Both the position numbers and the translations under genes were made by a program. Shown in pieces: positions 56,653 to 64,000 of a DNA stretch of 64,000 nucleotides. Position 1 is the stretch's first letter, and every line of letters starts with the position of its first letter. The DNA lies in contig QCBU01000007.1 of NCBI GenBank assembly GCA_003281505.1, positions 3,075-67,074 of the forward strand, in the 5' to 3' direction. The notes under the pieces are model-generated. The model saw nothing but the letters and a program-made list of their open reading frames with translations. It was not told the DNA's origin and ran no database searches. This DNA is from Prochlorococcus sp. AG-347-J14 (GTDB lineage Bacteria > Cyanobacteriota > Cyanobacteriia > PCC-6307 > Cyanobiaceae).

Positions 56653-58182
56653 TTAGTGAGCCTCCTCTGTTTTTTTATCTAAAGACATTCCAATAATTTG
56701 GGCGGAATGAATGTTGTCTCTATCTCTAATAGTAGAGCAAGTATGTAACAAACCTTGATCAACTAAATTTTTATACCTAATTGATATCGCATTATTAACC
56801 CTTTCACAATCTTTTATTGCCCTCTCTTTTGCGCCGGGTACTTTGCCAGAGTAATCAAATCTTATTACTACTGGAATAGGTAGATCTTGAGACACATTTA
56901 GTCCAGTAAAAATCTTCACTCCTACATCTAAATCTGGAGCCCCTTCTTCGACTGTATCTAAATGAGCAAAATAAGTTAAGTTTCTTAGATGTACTTCTTT
57001 AAAACCTATACCTACTCCAATAAACCTCTCTGCATGTCCAATATCTTCATAAGAACCATTATGAAAACTCTTTACATAATCAATTTGAGAAATATTATTA
57101 ACAATTAATTTATACATAAATTTTTCCAGTCCACTGAGTTTATCTTTTGAAAATTGCTTAGAAATTGTCTGACAAATTTCTCTTTCCGCATCCTCTTTTG
57201 AAAAGTTTATTGTTGAATTATAAATTTCTAAAGTAGAAATAGTTTTTTCTAAATCAATCCCTCCATCACTAGTTGGTATATGTATTTTTAATGAATCAGT
57301 ATCCGTATCAAGTCCAATTAACATTAAATCCACAGAAGCACCACAGCAAAAGCTATTCTCTACAGCCTCTTTAAAAGCGTATAGTTTACTTCTCCCTTCT
57401 TCCGCAGCTAACTCGTCATTACTCCCATGAGCTGCGCATCCCTGATGCAAAGGATCTACAGAACTAAAATGATAAGTTACAACCTTTAAGTACCTAGTAT
57501 CTTTATGGGCTTCATTAGGGATATTCTCTCTATACCTTTTATGTTCAGTTTTTACCCATCTATTTACTGTATTTTCAATATCAAAAAGTGCACCAGCATG
57601 AGATCTTCTTCTTACTGAACTAAAAGGTATTCTCATTACATACGCTACTGAATGAGCTAATCGACCATCCGAACAAGGAGTTATATCAAGTAAATGTATT
57701 CCACAATCTAAAAGAAATTTTTCAAAATCTTCCGCACCTCTACTTCCTGAAGCCCCTTCAAGAGGATCATTTTTAAAAAAATTGTCACTAAGTTTCTCAT
57801 GTTGTTTAAAAGCACACCATGCATATAGAGCTCTCATATCGAGAGGTTTAACCCAAGATTTATCTAATACATGAAGAGGTAGATCTATTCCCAAATTTTT
57901 TCTTGATATGACCTGAGCTTTACTTATAAAATCTTCATGATGTTGTATCCTAGCAATTTCCTTTAAAGTAGGAACAATTTCATCAAAATCACTTTTTATT
58001 TTGCTTTCATAACTATATAAATTTTTATTCTGAATACTGTTAGTTAATTTATGAGATTTTCCAGAATTACCTAAATCGCTTGATTTTTTAGTTTGTGTAT
58101 GAATATTTTCCGTAAAAGTTTTCATTGGAGCTGTAGGCCCCAATGTGAAGTTCTTGGCTTTTGCCAGTCCTCTTAAAGGCAT
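56653..58182 (-). CDS. csoSCA: Carboxysomal beta-carbonic anhydrase
   Basis: PCSDGRL, YHFS...HQGCAAHGS Zn ligands; position in operon. Confidence 0.95.
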   Translation of the reverse strand: MPLRGLAKAKNFTLGPTAPMKTFTENIHTQTKKSSDLGNSGKSHKLTNSIQNKNLYSYESKIKSDFDEIVPTLKEIARIQHHEDFISKAQVISRKNLGIDLPLHVLDKSWVKPLDMRALYAWCAFKQHEKLSDNFFKNDPLEGASGSRGAEDFEKFLLDCGIHLLDITPCSDGRLAHSVAYVMRIPFSSVRRRSHAGALFDIENTVNRWVKTEHKRYRENIPNEAHKDTRYLKVVTYHFSSVDPLHQGCAAHGSNDELAAEEGRSKLYAFKEAVENSFCCGASVDLMLIGLDTDTDSLKIHIPTSDGGIDLEKTISTLEIYNSTINFSKEDAEREICQTISKQFSKDKLSGLEKFMYKLIVNNISQIDYVKSFHNGSYEDIGHAERFIGVGIGFKEVHLRNLTYFAHLDTVEEGAPDLDVGVKIFTGLNVSQDLPIPVVIRFDYSGKVPGAKERAIKDCERVNNAISIRYKNLVDQGLLHTCSTIRDRDNIHSAQIIGMSLDKKTEEAH

Positions 58183-58189
58183 TATTTAA

Positions 58190-60484
58190 TTACCCTCGTG
58201 CACCACCTGAGAAGGTAACAAGTTGTCCTTCACGAGTATTACCACTTGATCCCGTTATCAAGAAATCTGGCTCTTTCATTTCATCATTCCTTTTTATATC
58301 CATCACTGGCATTGCACTCGTCATGCCTGGTCTTGTAGGATTTCTTTTTCTTGCTGAAGCTCCTTCAGTACCTGTTACCCTGTTTCCTCTTGCCCAATCA
58401 TCCCCTGTTATCTTCAACCCAGCAGATTGACCCTCGCCAGTAATTCTGGATTGTGCTCTCTCTTTTGAAGAATCAAATTCCTTTAAATCTTTTTTTGGGG
58501 TAAGTAGGGAATTTTTGTTTTTATCAAACCTAAATTGTTCTGTCCCTGTTACTGTGTCCTCAGCCATATCGAATGGGCCTGTAATCTTTGAGCCATTTTC
58601 ATACTCATTGCCTGTTACACCATCTCTTTTTTTATCAGAGTATTTATCTCTTGAGGGAGAATTTACAGAAAATTCTTCCCATGAGCTTGAATTTTTTCTT
58701 TCACTATTGGCATAATTTTTTTCGGATGAATGATTGGAACAATTATTACCTAACTGATCTCCGCCAACATATGGGGTGCCTGTTGGATTTAGACAAGCCC
58801 CTTTACCTGCTCCAGTCATACTTCCTCCGATACCAGGTTGTATACCTGTAAGGCGAGCATTTGAGCTACCTCCTAAATAAATTTTTCCTTTATCTTTTAA
58901 TTCAGTTATTAAGTCAGAATTACAATTTTCCTCAACTTGATCTAATCCAGCATATGGTGTCCCAGTTACATTTTTGCAAGTTCCAGGTTCATCGCCAGTA
59001 ACTTTCTCAGATCTTCCAGTTAAGGTGCCACTAATCTCATTAGCGTTATTTGAGAGACTAACTCCAACCTTCATTGCTTCAGGTTTTGGTTTGGATTTAC
59101 AGAATGACTCGTATTGTTGGGAACCAATATATTCATCGCCAGTTACATTTTTACAGCTTCCTGGTTCATTACCAGTAACGAATTCAGACCTCCCTACTCC
59201 TGTACCAGTTAATGCATTGCCATTTAATGTATCGTATTTCCCGACTTTTTCATGAGATCTCCCTTTAGGATTAGTTTCTGAACCAAGATATTGATCGCCC
59301 GTTAATTGATGACCAGATCCTGACTCATCTCCAGTTACAAGTGCAGATCTCCCAGGTAAAGAACCAGATACTTTTAATCCGTCAGCTGTATTACTATGTT
59401 TAACCTTTGAGGGATTTTTGGGAACTTCCCCACAATATTCCTTTGACTGATTTGCAGAACTATATTCAGTACCAGTTACATTTTTGCAAGTTCCAGGTTC
59501 ATCGCCAGTAACTTTCTCAGATCTTCCGACCTCATTACCTGTGACTTTATTTCCAGCTGATGTTGAAGTTACTGAGGATCTAGTTGGCTGTTTATATTCA
59601 GGTTGATTTTGGCAAAATTGATTAAGTACTTCGGATCCCAAATATTGTGTACCTGTGACGCTTCTACATGTACTAGCTTCATTACCAGTAGTTTTTAACG
59701 ATCTATTAGCCTGTGTTCCAGTTACTGTTTGTCCAGAATTAGTTTCACTTTTGCCAACTTTCCAACTTGCATCAGCAATATTCATTTTTGATCCATTTTT
59801 ATTCGGACCACATGGTCTACATTTACCATTTCCTTTTTTTGAGGTTGCTCCAGTTTTACTTCTTAATTCCCTAACTCTTTGAGATATTTCTCTGCTTGAT
59901 AAATCTGGATCTCCTCTTCTAGCTAAAGATGCTGCACTACTATTTTGTTTAGAAGCTGATTTGCCATGTTTAGATTGAGCTTCTCTTCTTGCCAAAACAA
60001 TATCTCTACTTGTATTGGTGATAGGTTTTCTTTTTTGAGTAACCCTTCTTTTAATTTTAGTATTTAGAACTTTATTCTCTGAATTACCAGAATTTGATAA
60101 GTCAGGGCTTTTATCTGAAGTTATTTTTATTTCATTTACTTGGATCTTTTTATTAGCTTCTGTACGAGTTCTATCAGATGAACTTATGGCTGATTTGCCA
60201 TGAGTTGACATTGCTTTCCTTCTTTCAATTACAAGTTCTTTGCTGGATAAATTTTTAGAAAAGGATTTTTTATTCATTTTTGCTGTTGGAATATGTTTTT
60301 TCGAAGTATTTGTCATATTTGTATCAATGGAAGATTTTATCCCAGAAATTTGCATATCATCAGATGTGCGAACCCTGTCTTTAGTAGTAGAAGAATTAGC
60401 AACAGCTTTTTTTCCGCTATCACTCATAGCTTTTCTTCTCTCTAATGCAATTTCTCTACTAGTTTTCATTGACATAACCTTCAA
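58190..60484 (-). CDS. csoS2: Carboxysome scaffold protein CsoS2
   Basis: N-repeats (SREIALERRKAMS..GK), M-repeats with VTG triplets, C-terminus VTFSGGARG; the true start may be the MSMK ATG at 60475. Confidence 0.96.
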   Translation of the reverse strand: MKVMSMKTSREIALERRKAMSDSGKKAVANSSTTKDRVRTSDDMQISGIKSSIDTNMTNTSKKHIPTAKMNKKSFSKNLSSKELVIERRKAMSTHGKSAISSSDRTRTEANKKIQVNEIKITSDKSPDLSNSGNSENKVLNTKIKRRVTQKRKPITNTSRDIVLARREAQSKHGKSASKQNSSAASLARRGDPDLSSREISQRVRELRSKTGATSKKGNGKCRPCGPNKNGSKMNIADASWKVGKSETNSGQTVTGTQANRSLKTTGNEASTCRSVTGTQYLGSEVLNQFCQNQPEYKQPTRSSVTSTSAGNKVTGNEVGRSEKVTGDEPGTCKNVTGTEYSSANQSKEYCGEVPKNPSKVKHSNTADGLKVSGSLPGRSALVTGDESGSGHQLTGDQYLGSETNPKGRSHEKVGKYDTLNGNALTGTGVGRSEFVTGNEPGSCKNVTGDEYIGSQQYESFCKSKPKPEAMKVGVSLSNNANEISGTLTGRSEKVTGDEPGTCKNVTGTPYAGLDQVEENCNSDLITELKDKGKIYLGGSSNARLTGIQPGIGGSMTGAGKGACLNPTGTPYVGGDQLGNNCSNHSSEKNYANSERKNSSSWEEFSVNSPSRDKYSDKKRDGVTGNEYENGSKITGPFDMAEDTVTGTEQFRFDKNKNSLLTPKKDLKEFDSSKERAQSRITGEGQSAGLKITGDDWARGNRVTGTEGASARKRNPTRPGMTSAMPVMDIKRNDEMKEPDFLITGSSGNTREGQLVTFSGGARG
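58962..59017. repeat. 56-bp exact direct repeat copy A within csoS2
   Basis: ccagttacatttttgcaagttccaggttcatcgccagtaactttctcagatcttcc, identical to 59472-59527. Confidence 0.95.
59472..59527. repeat. 56-bp exact direct repeat copy B within csoS2
   Basis: Identical to 58962-59017 (offset 510 bp, in frame). Confidence 0.95.
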
Positions 60485-60504
60485 TTGTGAAACTTTTTAA
60501 AAAG

Positions 60505-60540
60505 ACTTTCTCCAAAAAATTAAGTTCTTATGGAGAAAGT
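60505..60540 (-). terminator. Stem-loop between rbcS and csoS2 (attenuator or mRNA stabiliser)
   Basis: ACTTTCTCCA-N16-TGGAGAAAGT perfect 10-bp inverted repeat; minus strand continues CTTTTT. Confidence 0.65.
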
Positions 60541-60561
60541 TATTTACTACGAAAAGTAGCT

Positions 60562-60903
60562 TTAACGTCCTTGGAAAACTACAAAAGCTGTTCCTTGACT
60601 TTGAGTGTAAGCATCGTATCCGATAATTCTTACATGATGATCAGGATATGCTCTATGGCATGCCTCTAATTCGCTCACGATCAAGTTAAGATCTTTTTCC
60701 CCAAAGAATGGGAGTTTCCAATAAGACCAATAAGTTTGCATACATCCACTTGGATGAACATGCTCAATAACTGGACTCCAACCTTGAGCAATTATGTAGG
60801 CAATTTGGTCATATATTTCTTCCTGGGTCATCGGTGGTAAGAAACCGAATGTTTCCAGGGTTGCAACTGTTTGATAGTCGCTTACTGTGCTCTGGAAAGG
60901 CAT
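60562..60903 (-). CDS. rbcS: Rubisco small subunit, form IA
   Basis: ETFGFLPP, YWSYWKLPFF, RIIGYD. Confidence 0.98.
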   Translation of the reverse strand: MPFQSTVSDYQTVATLETFGFLPPMTQEEIYDQIAYIIAQGWSPVIEHVHPSGCMQTYWSYWKLPFFGEKDLNLIVSELEACHRAYPDHHVRIIGYDAYTQSQGTAFVVFQGR

Positions 60904-60992
60904 AATTAATCAAAATGTGAATGTAATTACTCGTAAAAACGAGATTTTAATAAGTTTGAGGAGAATAAATCTACTCAATTTCGAAACTTGAG

Positions 60993-62408
60993 TTAACCCT
61001 GAACATCAAGCTTGTCGACAGTGTCAAACTCGAACTTAATTTCCTTCCAAGTTTCTAGAGCAATAGCTAATTCAGGACTATGCTTAGCAGCTTCCATAAG
61101 AATGTCTCTACTCTCTTTTTCGATTTCGCGACCAGCATTTCGGGCTTTTACACAAGCTTCTAAAGCAACTCTGTTAGCTGCAGCTCCAGCAGCAGAACCC
61201 CATGGATGACCATGTGTTCCTCCACCGAACTGAAGGCAGGAATCATCACCAAAGATCGCTAGAAGTGCAGGCATATGCCAAACATGGATACCACCTGATG
61301 CGACTGCAAATACTCCAGGCATTGAACCCCAATCTTGATCAAAGAAGTTACCTCTTGATCTATCTTCAGGAACAAATGACTCTCTTAAGTTGTCAATATA
61401 ACCAAGAGTTGTTTGACGATCACCTTCTAGTTTTCCAACAACGGTTCCAGTATGTAATTGGTCTCCTCCAGATAGTCTCAAACATTTTGCAAGAACTCTG
61501 AAGTGAATACCATGCTTTGGATGTCTATCAATAACAGCATGCATAGCTCTATGAATATGCAAAAGCATGCCATTTTTACGACACCAATTAGCTAATCCAG
61601 TATTTGCAGTAAAACCACCAGTTATATAATCATGCATGATGATTGGCATATCTAGCTCTTTTGCAAATTCAGCTCTTTCATAGAGTTCTTCAGGAGTGTT
61701 AGCAGTACAATTTAGATAGTGACCTTTAACTTCTCCAGTTTCTCGCTGAGCAAGCTTAACTGCTTCTGCAACAAACTCAAATCTTTCTCTCCAACGTTGG
61801 AATGGTTGAGAATTAATATTCTCATCATCCTTCGTTAAATCAAGACCTCCTCTAAGACATTCATATACAACTCGACCATAGTTTTTACCAGATAATCCTA
61901 ATTTAGGTTTGATGGTACAACCAAGTAGAGGTCTTCCGTATTTGTTAAGTCGATCTCTTTCAACTACGATTCCATTTGGTGGACCACCGCAAGTTTTAAT
62001 GAAAGCAATTGGGAATCTAATATCTTCTAGACGTAGATGTCTAAGAGCTTTAAATCCAAAAACGTTTCCTACAAGAGATGTTAATACGTTTGTAATTGAG
62101 CCTTCTTCAAAAAGATCTAAAGGATATGCAATAAAAGCATAGAAAGCTTCAGGATCTCCAGGAACGTCTTCGATTCGATAACAACGTCCTTTATAAAATT
62201 CTAAGTCTGTAAGTAACTCGGACCAAACTGTTGACCAAGTACCTGTTGAAGATTCAGCGGCAACAGCTGCTGCAACTTCTTCTCTTGGAACACCTTCCTG
62301 ACCTGTACATTTGAAACAGGCTAGTAAATCGGTGTCTAGGGGGACATATTCTGGAGTCCAGTAGGTATCTCTGTACTCCTTTACCCCTGCGTCATACTTC
62401 TTACTCAT
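60993..62408 (-). CDS. rbcL: Rubisco large subunit, form IA
   Basis: [34 protein letters not shown]. Confidence 0.99.
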
Positions 62409-62477
62409 AAGGATAAATTTAGGTCTGTGTAGGGAAAATAATTATTTTGCAAAATTTATAAATCTTGCTTTACTTAA

Positions 62478-62789
62478 TTAGTCCTTTTGACCAAGAAATT
62501 CACCGTTACCTAGAGCAGGTTCAACTTCTCTATGAGGACGAGCAATAATGTGAGCTGCAACTAAACCGTCACCAACTCTCTCACAAGCATCAGCACCAGC
62601 TCTTACAGCTGCGTTAACTGCGCCTGTTTCGCCTCTAACTAATACTGTGACATAACCGCCACCAACGAATTCACGACCAATAAGGCGAACTTCTGCTGCC
62701 TTTGTCATTGCGTCTGCTGCTTCGATTGCAGGTACAAGTCCGCGTGTCTCGATCATGCCGAGAGCGATACCCATTGTTTCTGTAGCCAT
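62478..62789 (-). CDS. csoS1: Major carboxysome shell hexamer CsoS1 (CcmK-like BMC-H)
   Basis: ALGMIETRGLVPAIEAADAMTKAAEV, IIARPH. Confidence 0.98.
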   Translation of the reverse strand: MATETMGIALGMIETRGLVPAIEAADAMTKAAEVRLIGREFVGGGYVTVLVRGETGAVNAAVRAGADACERVGDGLVAAHIIARPHREVEPALGNGEFLGQKD

Positions 62790-62898
62790 TGTCTACTAAA
62801 TACTAAATGTGGAATGTTCAATTCGAAGAATGCTTCATTAAGTACTTATAAGTCAAGCGTTTTCGACAAAATCTCCATTAATGTTTTTTCTATGATTC

Positions 62899-62913
62899 AT
62901 AAGTTAAACTTAT
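62899..62913. promoter_or_regulatory. Palindrome in cso promoter region, LysR (CbbR/RbcR)-type T-N11-A site
   Basis: ATAAGTT-A-AACTTAT, containing TAA-N7-TTA, ~110 bp upstream of csoS1. Confidence 0.45.
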
Positions 62914-63012
62914 CACCCTTGGTACTATTGATATGTCAATACTTATAGAAATTAGTTAGTGCATCAAAACATACTGTTGTGTTAAGAAAAAATTTACATT
63001 ATGTTATTTCCG

Positions 63013-63069
63013 TACGAGACAGGCCCTGTCTATACAGGTGTGGAATGTTCAACCTTTCCTGTCTCCGTA
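63013..63069 (+). ncRNA. Candidate structured small RNA or leader element between csoS1 and ham1 (strand uncertain)
   Basis: GC-rich outer stem TACG-AGACAGG / CCTGTCT-C-CGTA, inner hairpin CCTGT-CTAT-ACAGG, unpaired TGTGGAATGTTCAA identical to 62808-62821. Confidence 0.55.
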
Positions 63070-63116
63070 TCAAGCTTTGAAGTAAGATAATATTCACAAT
63101 AAATTTATTTGTTATT

Positions 63117-63701
63117 TTGAACCTTCCAGTTCTAACAATTGCTAGTGGCAATCAAAGAAAAGTATCTGAAATTTCAGAGATGCTGGATGTTTTGTCTTTA
63201 AATGTTCAGAAGCAACCAGAATATTTAAATGTTGAAGAGACTGGAAATACATATTTTGAGAATGCACTTCTAAAAGCAAAAGCAGCTGCTTTAGAGACTA
63301 AAACTTGGGCATTAGCTGATGACTCGGGTCTTGAAGTAGATTTTTTAGATGGTCGGCCAGGAATTTATTCTGCTCGATATGCCAAGACTAATGATGAGAA
63401 AATTAAAAAATTAATTAATGAACTTTCTGATAGTCCTTATAGGAGTGCAAGATTTATAAGTTGTATGGTTTTGTGCGATCCCTCAGGAAACTTAGTTAAA
63501 GATACAACAGGAATATGCTGGGGAGAAATTCTTAAGAACCCCAAATATCCAAACGGGGAATTCGAATCTATTTTTTGGGTAAAAGAGTCTAACTGTGTTT
63601 ACGGTGAGCTCTCGCAATCACAATTAAATAAATTAGGTAGTAGAGGTAAAGCTGCAAAAATCATGTCACCTTTTTTAAAGAAAGAGATAGGTTTAAGTTG
63701 A
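63117..63701 (+). CDS. Ham1/RdgB-family NTP pyrophosphatase-like protein (divergent specificity motifs)
   Basis: ASGNQRKV, EETG.TY.ENA..KA, ADDSGL, PGIYSARY; TTG start. Confidence 0.85.
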   Translation: MNLPVLTIASGNQRKVSEISEMLDVLSLNVQKQPEYLNVEETGNTYFENALLKAKAAALETKTWALADDSGLEVDFLDGRPGIYSARYAKTNDEKIKKLINELSDSPYRSARFISCMVLCDPSGNLVKDTTGICWGEILKNPKYPNGEFESIFWVKESNCVYGELSQSQLNKLGSRGKAAKIMSPFLKKEIGLS

Positions 63702-63724
63702 AAAAATTTTAAATTAAAAAATTC

Positions 63725-64000
63725 TCAATAATTTGAAATTTCTTCAATTGCTCTTATAGCAGCAGCTGCAGCCTCTTCTACATCCCCTTCTTTCCCAGCG
63801 AGAGTTAATCTACCAAAAGCTCCAACTGCCTTAACATCAACAACAGTTATATTAGATGCCTTTTCAGCTTCATTTGCTGCTTTTAAAACATAACCAGCAG
63901 GTTCAGTTTCTAAAATAAACATGCTCATTCCAGATTGAATCATTGATCCACTTCTGTTTTGTCTATTTATTAAAACTGCATGATCTGGAGTAATTGCTCG
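63725..64000 (-). CDS. csoS1D: Tandem-BMC shell protein CsoS1D, C-terminal part (start outside window)
   Basis: Frame open to the window edge: [13 protein letters not shown]...[19 protein letters not shown]...GAFGRL. Confidence 0.9.

Follow-up and report, generated by a model that had tools for sequence, protein, structure and literature searches.

Several type I toxin-antitoxin loci, including IstR-1/tisB, OhsC/shoB and OrzO/zorO, encode an antisense RNA whose gene is adjacent to and divergent from its target without overlapping it, and whose complementarity to the target's 5' leader forms a single long run. The candidate regulatory RNA described here, which is encoded beside the carboxysome shell gene csoS1, shares with these systems both the neighbouring divergent gene and the single long leader complementarity, but its predicted target serves housekeeping carbon fixation, the pairing would start from +1 of a 30-nt leader, and the ends of the RNA are paired, with no U tail. 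How Prochlorococcus tunes its carboxysomes is, to our knowledge, largely an open question.

Prochlorococcus is described as having few regulatory proteins (PMC2518516). Its RNAs Yfr1 and Yfr10 are likewise small and structured and pair with mRNA leaders through a conserved single-stranded motif, but they differ in motif, locus and fold and have many targets (PMC6778093, PMC2518516), whereas the csoS1-adjacent RNA is linked to a single operon next to it and matches the +1 end of that operon's transcript. Yfr10 is reported to have pulled down csoS1 and csoS2 RNA (PMC6778093). In Synechocystis PCC 6803 the RNA RblR is also a regulator of the Rubisco message, but this organism is a beta-cyanobacterium, and RblR is antisense to rbcL and is reported to act positively (PMC5306279); the csoS1-adjacent RNA, unlike RblR, has no overlap with its target and lies 194 nt away. 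We found no published description of this RNA in a search of mainly openly accessible literature, and published start-site lists for MED4 and MIT9313 could already include it. No description was found in the accessible parts of PMC2518516, PMC1242208, PMC7368042, PMC5069720, PMC6778093 and PMC13249358, the last of which, a 2026 review of CO2-concentrating mechanisms, names no small RNA on the cso leader in the sections available. The initial annotation of this locus had allowed for a match to a catalogued Yfr RNA, but none of the 14 in Table 1 of PMC2518516 lies at this position, and the comparison with Rfam that it had proposed (positions 58000-64000, E<=5) returned two chance matches elsewhere and none over the element. 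The element is thus apparently an undescribed small RNA present across the family.

The window, that is the whole stretch of 64,000 nucleotides that was analysed, comes from a genome of 1.5 Mb with a GC content of 31%, and ends in the alpha-carboxysome locus, where csoS1 is flanked on the left by rbcL and the other genes of the cso operon, and on the right by ham1 and a csoS1D-like gene. The features discussed below are as follows.

62478-62789, minus strand: csoS1, which opens the cso operon and encodes the main shell protein of the alpha-carboxysome; predicted target (NF053791, above cut-off); ATG at 62789
62790-62796, minus strand: predicted target site 2, GUAGACA immediately 5' of the csoS1 AUG (complementarity to P2)
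62805-62819, minus strand: predicted target site 1, covering +1 to +15 of the csoS1-rbcLS mRNA, with the start site placed at 62819 (promoter boxes, CC9605 start-site spacing)
62827-62832, minus strand: cso promoter -10 box CATTCT (position constant across family loci)
62851-62856, minus strand: cso promoter -35 box TTGACT (plus-strand GTCAA, position constant across family loci)
62899-62913, no strand assigned: putative RbcR-like inverted repeat ATAAG-N5-CTTAT between the divergent promoters (30/30 same-genus loci)
63000-63005, plus strand: -10 box TATGTT of the RNA (TAnnnT at this offset in 47/49 loci; 30/30 same-genus loci)
63012-63070, plus strand: small RNA gene, about 59 nt (fold, -10 box, covariance model, CC9605 start-site distance, MED4 64-nt peak)
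63013-63023, plus strand: outer stem P1, 5' arm (folding, covariation)
63025-63038, plus strand: inner hairpin P2, holding the predicted second pairing site TGTCTAT at 63027-63033 (folding, complementarity)
63036-63050, plus strand: seed, 15 nt predicted to pair, with two G.U pairs, to cso mRNA +1 to +15 (complementarity)
63058-63069, plus strand: outer stem P1, 3' arm, with no U-tract after it (folding, covariation)
63083-63088, plus strand: likely separate ham1 -10 box TAAGAT (TAnnnT in 30/30 same-genus loci; second ham1 start site in CC9605)
63117-63701, plus strand: ham1 (RdgB/HAM1 family), downstream neighbour of the RNA gene (TIGR00042, above cut-off)

The observation from which this work began, an exact 14-nucleotide repeat, was confirmed: TGTGGAATGTTCAA occurs at 62808-62821, 19-32 nt 5' of the csoS1 ATG on the minus strand, and again at 63039-63052, a spacing of 231 nt. 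It had been held unlikely to arise by chance, in agreement with our finding that, when the 327-nt spacer was simulated 5000 times with a dinucleotide-Markov model, an exact repeat of at least 14 letters appeared twice. The distal copy lies in an element that is, as described, GC-rich within an AT-rich spacer (49% GC against 26% in the remainder); folding reproduced the proposed outer stem (63013-63023 with 63058-63069) and inner hairpin (63025-63038), and the hexamers TACATT and TATGTT are found at the positions given for them. Two statements about the 14-mer held in part. It is unpaired in the centroid structure, but in the minimum-energy structure it forms a weak 4-bp hairpin, with per-base unpaired probabilities of 0.2-1.0; and the repeat is exact in this genome, but the motif truly shared between the two copies is a core of 10-12 nt. 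The last AA of the 14-mer lies 5' of the probable csoS1 start site and is not shared beyond this genus, and the last motif position is the same in both copies at 9 of 51 loci. Folding z-scores are modestly unusual (-1.7 for the plus and -2.7 for the minus strand), and folding energy is neutral with respect to strand, the plus strand being better in 13 of 23 genera.

A near-identical element is present in Prochlorococcus single-cell genome records (eight matched), but across 30 same-genus loci the spacer is conserved throughout, with 53 of 59 columns invariant in the element and 41 of 50 and 40 of 54 in the flanking stretches, and comparison beyond the genus was therefore required. We compared 60 csoS1 loci from across the family with 8 from the same genus, assigning the labels low-GC, marine-type and high-GC to clades by inference from GC content, gene order and genome size. 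The distal core was found with at most one mismatch in 48 of the 68 loci, and one more, a decayed copy, was included manually. A covariance model (R1) built from 42 of the compared loci, whose source genomes match by construction, gave one strong match each in 79 of 148 family genomes; weak matches (E 0.004-0.04) were seen in 4 of 112 genomes from other cyanobacterial families. A search of viral contigs with one pattern gave 18 matches, none of which had stems when inspected by eye, and these were judged to be chance matches in coding sequence. The initial annotation had reckoned with the possibility that stems and 14-mer would prove unconserved; both copies and the stems are in fact conserved beyond the genus. 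Decayed relics of the RNA gene are visible at six loci (L051, L052, L083, L089, L151 and L168), indicating repeated independent loss within the family.

The outer stem carries the evidence for a structured RNA. In a plain MAFFT alignment of 42 sequences two-sided changes are seen in 6 of the 8 P1 pairs, and 87% of cells pair, against 32-53% in slid-register controls. The P1 covariation score was reached by none of 500 shuffles, with two-sided changes in 31 cells compared with 7.7 in the shuffles, and an alignment-free comparison gave the same picture: the P1 arms of a genus pair better with each other than with the arms of other genera in 23 of 23 genera. The stem sequence has been fully replaced in several lineages, and the loop core is almost fixed. 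The covariation across relatives anticipated by the initial annotation is accordingly present in P1, but within the 10-nt core the compared loci showed no compensatory double change. A conserved structure with an accessible seed, as expected of a base-pairing sRNA, is thus seen, P1 being covariant and the seed weakly paired. We conclude that the element is a conserved structured RNA gene of about 60 nt, encoded on the plus strand divergently from the cso operon.

The strand is indicated by the promoter. A plus-strand TAnnnT begins 40-47 nt 5' of the core in 47 of 49 loci, both exceptions being decayed copies, and counts at the nine other plus offsets listed are 0-9, two of them being 9, with a best minus-strand offset of 15/49. 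The predicted 5' end of the RNA is G63012, 7 nt past the -10 box, and its predicted 3' end is the end of the outer stem. On the other strand a TTGAC -35 element and a CAnnnT-type -10 element of the cso promoter place +1 at the G of GAACAUUCC. The predicted start sites are 193 nt apart here; among 35 marine-type loci the distance is 194 nt in 30 and falls within 192-194 nt in every one. These marine-type loci (L001 and L024-L060) range from 37 to 64% GC, and their divergent start-site geometry is unusually rigid.

Published transcript data from two relatives fit the predicted ends. In Synechococcus CC9605 the csoS1 start site is listed at +716414 (133 counts) and starts on the ham1 strand at -716220 (33 counts) and -716107 (29 counts) (PMC5069720, Table S2). 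The first two are separated by 194 nt, as predicted, the match of -716220 to the element being made by distance; its count is a quarter of that of csoS1 in a single data set, and -716107 falls 18 nt before the revised ham1 start codon. In MED4 a stranded library shows, on the strand of ham1, a peak of 64 nt (518428-518491). It is distinct from the ham1 peak (518230-518413), and the csoS1 peak begins 186 nt away, its start being given as 518677 and elsewhere in that file as 518666; these peaks were placed by distance, and their ends, which come from peak-caller windows, are good to about 10 nt either way (PMC6778093, supplementary file 4). The RNA thus has its own -10 box, in 47 of 49 loci, and a primary 5' end in a relative, CC9605. 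Coverage in four metatranscriptome runs (unstranded contigs) is flat across the spacer and speaks neither for nor against the RNA, and a promoter and terminator scan that required a -35 match returned neither at the element. No U tract follows the stem in the 47 loci listed, so that the intrinsic terminator typical of Hfq-type RNAs is lacking and read-through into ham1 is possible. Nor does the RNA overlap its target in the manner of a cis-encoded antisense RNA, the start sites diverging 193-194 nt apart.

The start site and the peak thus already stand in published tables, filed under ham1 (PMM0548 in MED4) (PMC5069720, PMC6778093). This labelling, the missing terminator and the constant position of the element upstream of ham1 and on its strand would suit another reading. 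On this view the RNA either reaches the csoS1 leader solely as the leading segment of an extended ham1 transcript, or it serves ham1 as a leader acting in cis and does nothing at csoS1. We regard this as unlikely. In CC9605 ham1 has its own start site 113 nt downstream, in the genus of the present genome it has a likely, conserved -10 box of its own, and in MED4 the small peak is separate from that of ham1. The element lies about 75 to 255 nt from ham1 depending on the locus, ham1 remains where the element has been lost, and a cis-acting leader would leave the match to csoS1 unexplained.

Between the two promoters lies an inverted repeat with its centre some 87 nt before the cso start site. 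It resembles the Synechocystis RbcR motif in both its sequence and its typical position, as quoted in PMC13249358. This repeat and the fixed promoter spacing together suggest joint control, and it is likely that in marine lineages the two promoters, held 192-194 nt apart around the RbcR-like site, are controlled together. In the present genome the stretch 62899-62945 consists of the RbcR-like repeat followed by a conserved block with the palindrome TTGA-TATG-TCAA, and 41 of its 50 columns are invariant in 30 same-genus loci. At L066 an insertion of sbtA-like and sbtB-like genes (567-1922) has placed the RNA promoter back-to-back with that of the bicarbonate transporter.

Identity between the two copies halts at mRNA +1 and extends in the other direction, giving a pairable run from +1 with a median of 15 nt, and of at least 12 nt in 39 of 51 loci. 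Since the CC9605 and MED4 data fit the predicted ends, the motif is the first 10 or so bases of the cso mRNA, and the plus-strand RNA bears its complement. Where the copies differ, counting distinct genus-position cases, 15 differences retain a G.U pair, the RNA supplying the G and the mRNA the U, against 3 that give A.C, and 15 are plain mismatches; the excess of G in the RNA could reflect the need of P2 for a G-run. The base that precedes the core has become A in both copies in 6 genera, and the A/G combination is never seen. An uncompensated A-to-C change in the seed opposite an unchanged leader occurs at L074, L178 and L180, which belong to different genera, and single mismatches between seed and leader occur at L058 and L082. 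The stems and the -10 box of L180 are intact despite its seed change.

Among the 1492 start regions of this genome the seed ranks csoS1 first, as does, independently, the inner hairpin; the whole RNA places csoS1 second of 1492 by duplex energy and third among the top 80 by net co-folding, and co-folding with the leader beginning at +1 yields a net of about -13 kcal/mol. The seed ranks the leaders of rbcS, rbcL, csoS2, csoSCA and csoS4B at 269-644 of 1492 and that of csoS4A at 12; the additional pairing with the rbcS leader proposed at the outset, at rank 269, is unremarkable. The predicted second pairing site lies in the inner hairpin P2, which differs by clade. Its match in this genus is GUAGACA, just ahead of the AUG; other low-GC lineages show complementarity of up to 11 bp to the start codon and the bases flanking it, and in those of high GC the 7 matching nt adjoin the Shine-Dalgarno sequence. 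This match reaches p<=0.05 in 10 of 25 genera, whereas a control arm does so in 3 of 25; in one marine genus and in the high-GC group the match is weak.

The two copies also tend to be lost together. The leader core is intact in 78 of the 79 genomes with an RNA model match against 27 of the 69 without, a contrast that is inflated by the kinship of the genomes (two of the 69 are without a csoS1 match), although drift has nonetheless occurred in many separate genera. Where relics of the RNA are visible the leader tends to be kept, and where the RNA is traceless the leader has often drifted. The GTTC end of the leader is mostly retained with or without the RNA, and because of this, and of the intact leader in 27 RNA-less genomes, part of the leader motif may have a role in initiating transcription. 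At 35 loci lacking a model match only decayed relics were seen, and no changed RNA compensating a drifted leader; several of these loci are without ham1 beside csoS1, so their RNA may have been relocated. Several high-GC and other lineages (L153-L165, L170 and L171) have no ham1 within 3 kb upstream of csoS1, and in these the leader has mostly drifted, with one genus retaining the core without a detected RNA; at L155 genes resembling protochlorophyllide reductase subunits occupy the place of ham1. The original proposal of a plus-strand RNA antisense to the csoS1 leader is therefore strongly supported by the -10 box, stem covariation, start sites in a relative, the G.U bias and linked loss, with the pairing itself predicted.

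It is quite unlikely that both copies instead act as duplex DNA bound by a single protein, the first copy lying over the cso start site and the second 231 bp away, possibly with looping. The core is an imperfect palindrome, the spacing in marine lineages is about 230-238 bp, the leader copy persists in 27 of 69 genomes that lack the distal copy, and one core position has changed recurrently at three loci, all of which an operator might produce. Yet the distal copy sits inside a co-varying stem that begins at a mapped start site, and conservation of the leader stops at +1. Moreover, where sbtA and sbtB-like genes (named from reading of their translations) lie between csoS1 and the element, both copies are retained at a spacing of 1.6-1.9 kb, and neither the G.U asymmetry nor a second complementary site would be expected of an operator.

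The complementarity of the RNA to a target that it does not overlap is conserved, and on sequence grounds it likely works like a base-pairing sRNA, with the leader of the carboxysome operon as its target. Our main reading, to which we assign a probability of roughly 0.7, is that it base-pairs with the csoS1-rbcLS 5' leader, with a predicted block of CsoS1 translation. The exposed seed would first pair with mRNA +1 to about +15, after which the inner hairpin would open and pair around the Shine-Dalgarno sequence or the start codon; ribosomes would then be denied access to the 30-nt leader, and CsoS1 translation would be blocked. With its start at +1, the duplex may in addition protect the 5' end of the mRNA from decay, in which case shell synthesis would be lowered and the Rubisco message retained.

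The same start of the duplex at +1 would be consistent with an RNA that mainly stabilises or activates its message, in the way reported for RblR on rbcL, instead of repressing translation. High-GC leaders can hide the Shine-Dalgarno sequence in a hairpin that pairing at site 2 would disturb, and site 2 is weak in these lineages. We nevertheless consider this improbable, as site 2 in low-GC lineages covers bases just before, or including, the AUG; from the position of the duplex we infer repression rather than pure stabilisation. It is very improbable that, as had been proposed in the initial annotation, a minus-strand RNA with the leader's own motif titrates an RNA-binding protein as a CsrB-like sponge, for although the minus strand folds about equally well it has no positioned -10 box, the CC9605 table contains no csoS1-strand start across the element (7160xx-7163xx; PMC5069720, Table S2), the MED4 peak is on the opposite strand (PMC6778093), the transcribed strand is the complement of the leader rather than of the same sense, and each RNA has a single motif copy where CsrB-type RNAs have many repeats.

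Repression of CsoS1 by the RNA could be part of a broader scheme, which we put forward as tentative and somewhat doubtful. An ancient, dedicated RNA 'cap' in alpha-cyanobacteria, transcribed from a back-to-back promoter with a shared RbcR-like site, might clamp the mRNA from +1 to the start codon, silence CsoS1, protect the transcript and thereby set the ratio of shell to Rubisco. If so, this ratio would be set by an RNA in the most abundant phototrophs of the ocean. In any event the family gains an apparently undescribed RNA with a precise predicted target that is amenable to compensatory tests. The MED4 ccmK (csoS1) promoter has been used to drive reporters (PMC7523629), and constructs with the csoS1 promoter would be predicted to be subject to the RNA in hosts that carry it.

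A terminator-like hairpin within csoS1 (62647-62662, minus strand) is probably due to chance. The genome contains four exact copies of the 14-mer against a Markov expectation of about 0.02, the two additional copies being at the end of an ABC-transporter open reading frame and 299 nt 5' of rpoD. The latter (L144; G000:C8:75847-75860) is in the target sense and shares with the csoS1 leader the top place among contiguous matches in the genome. It is absent from 7 of 7 loci in other genera; within the genus it is exact here and in one of three other loci, with one mismatch in the other two, and if located at a start site it is possibly a second, recent target of the RNA.
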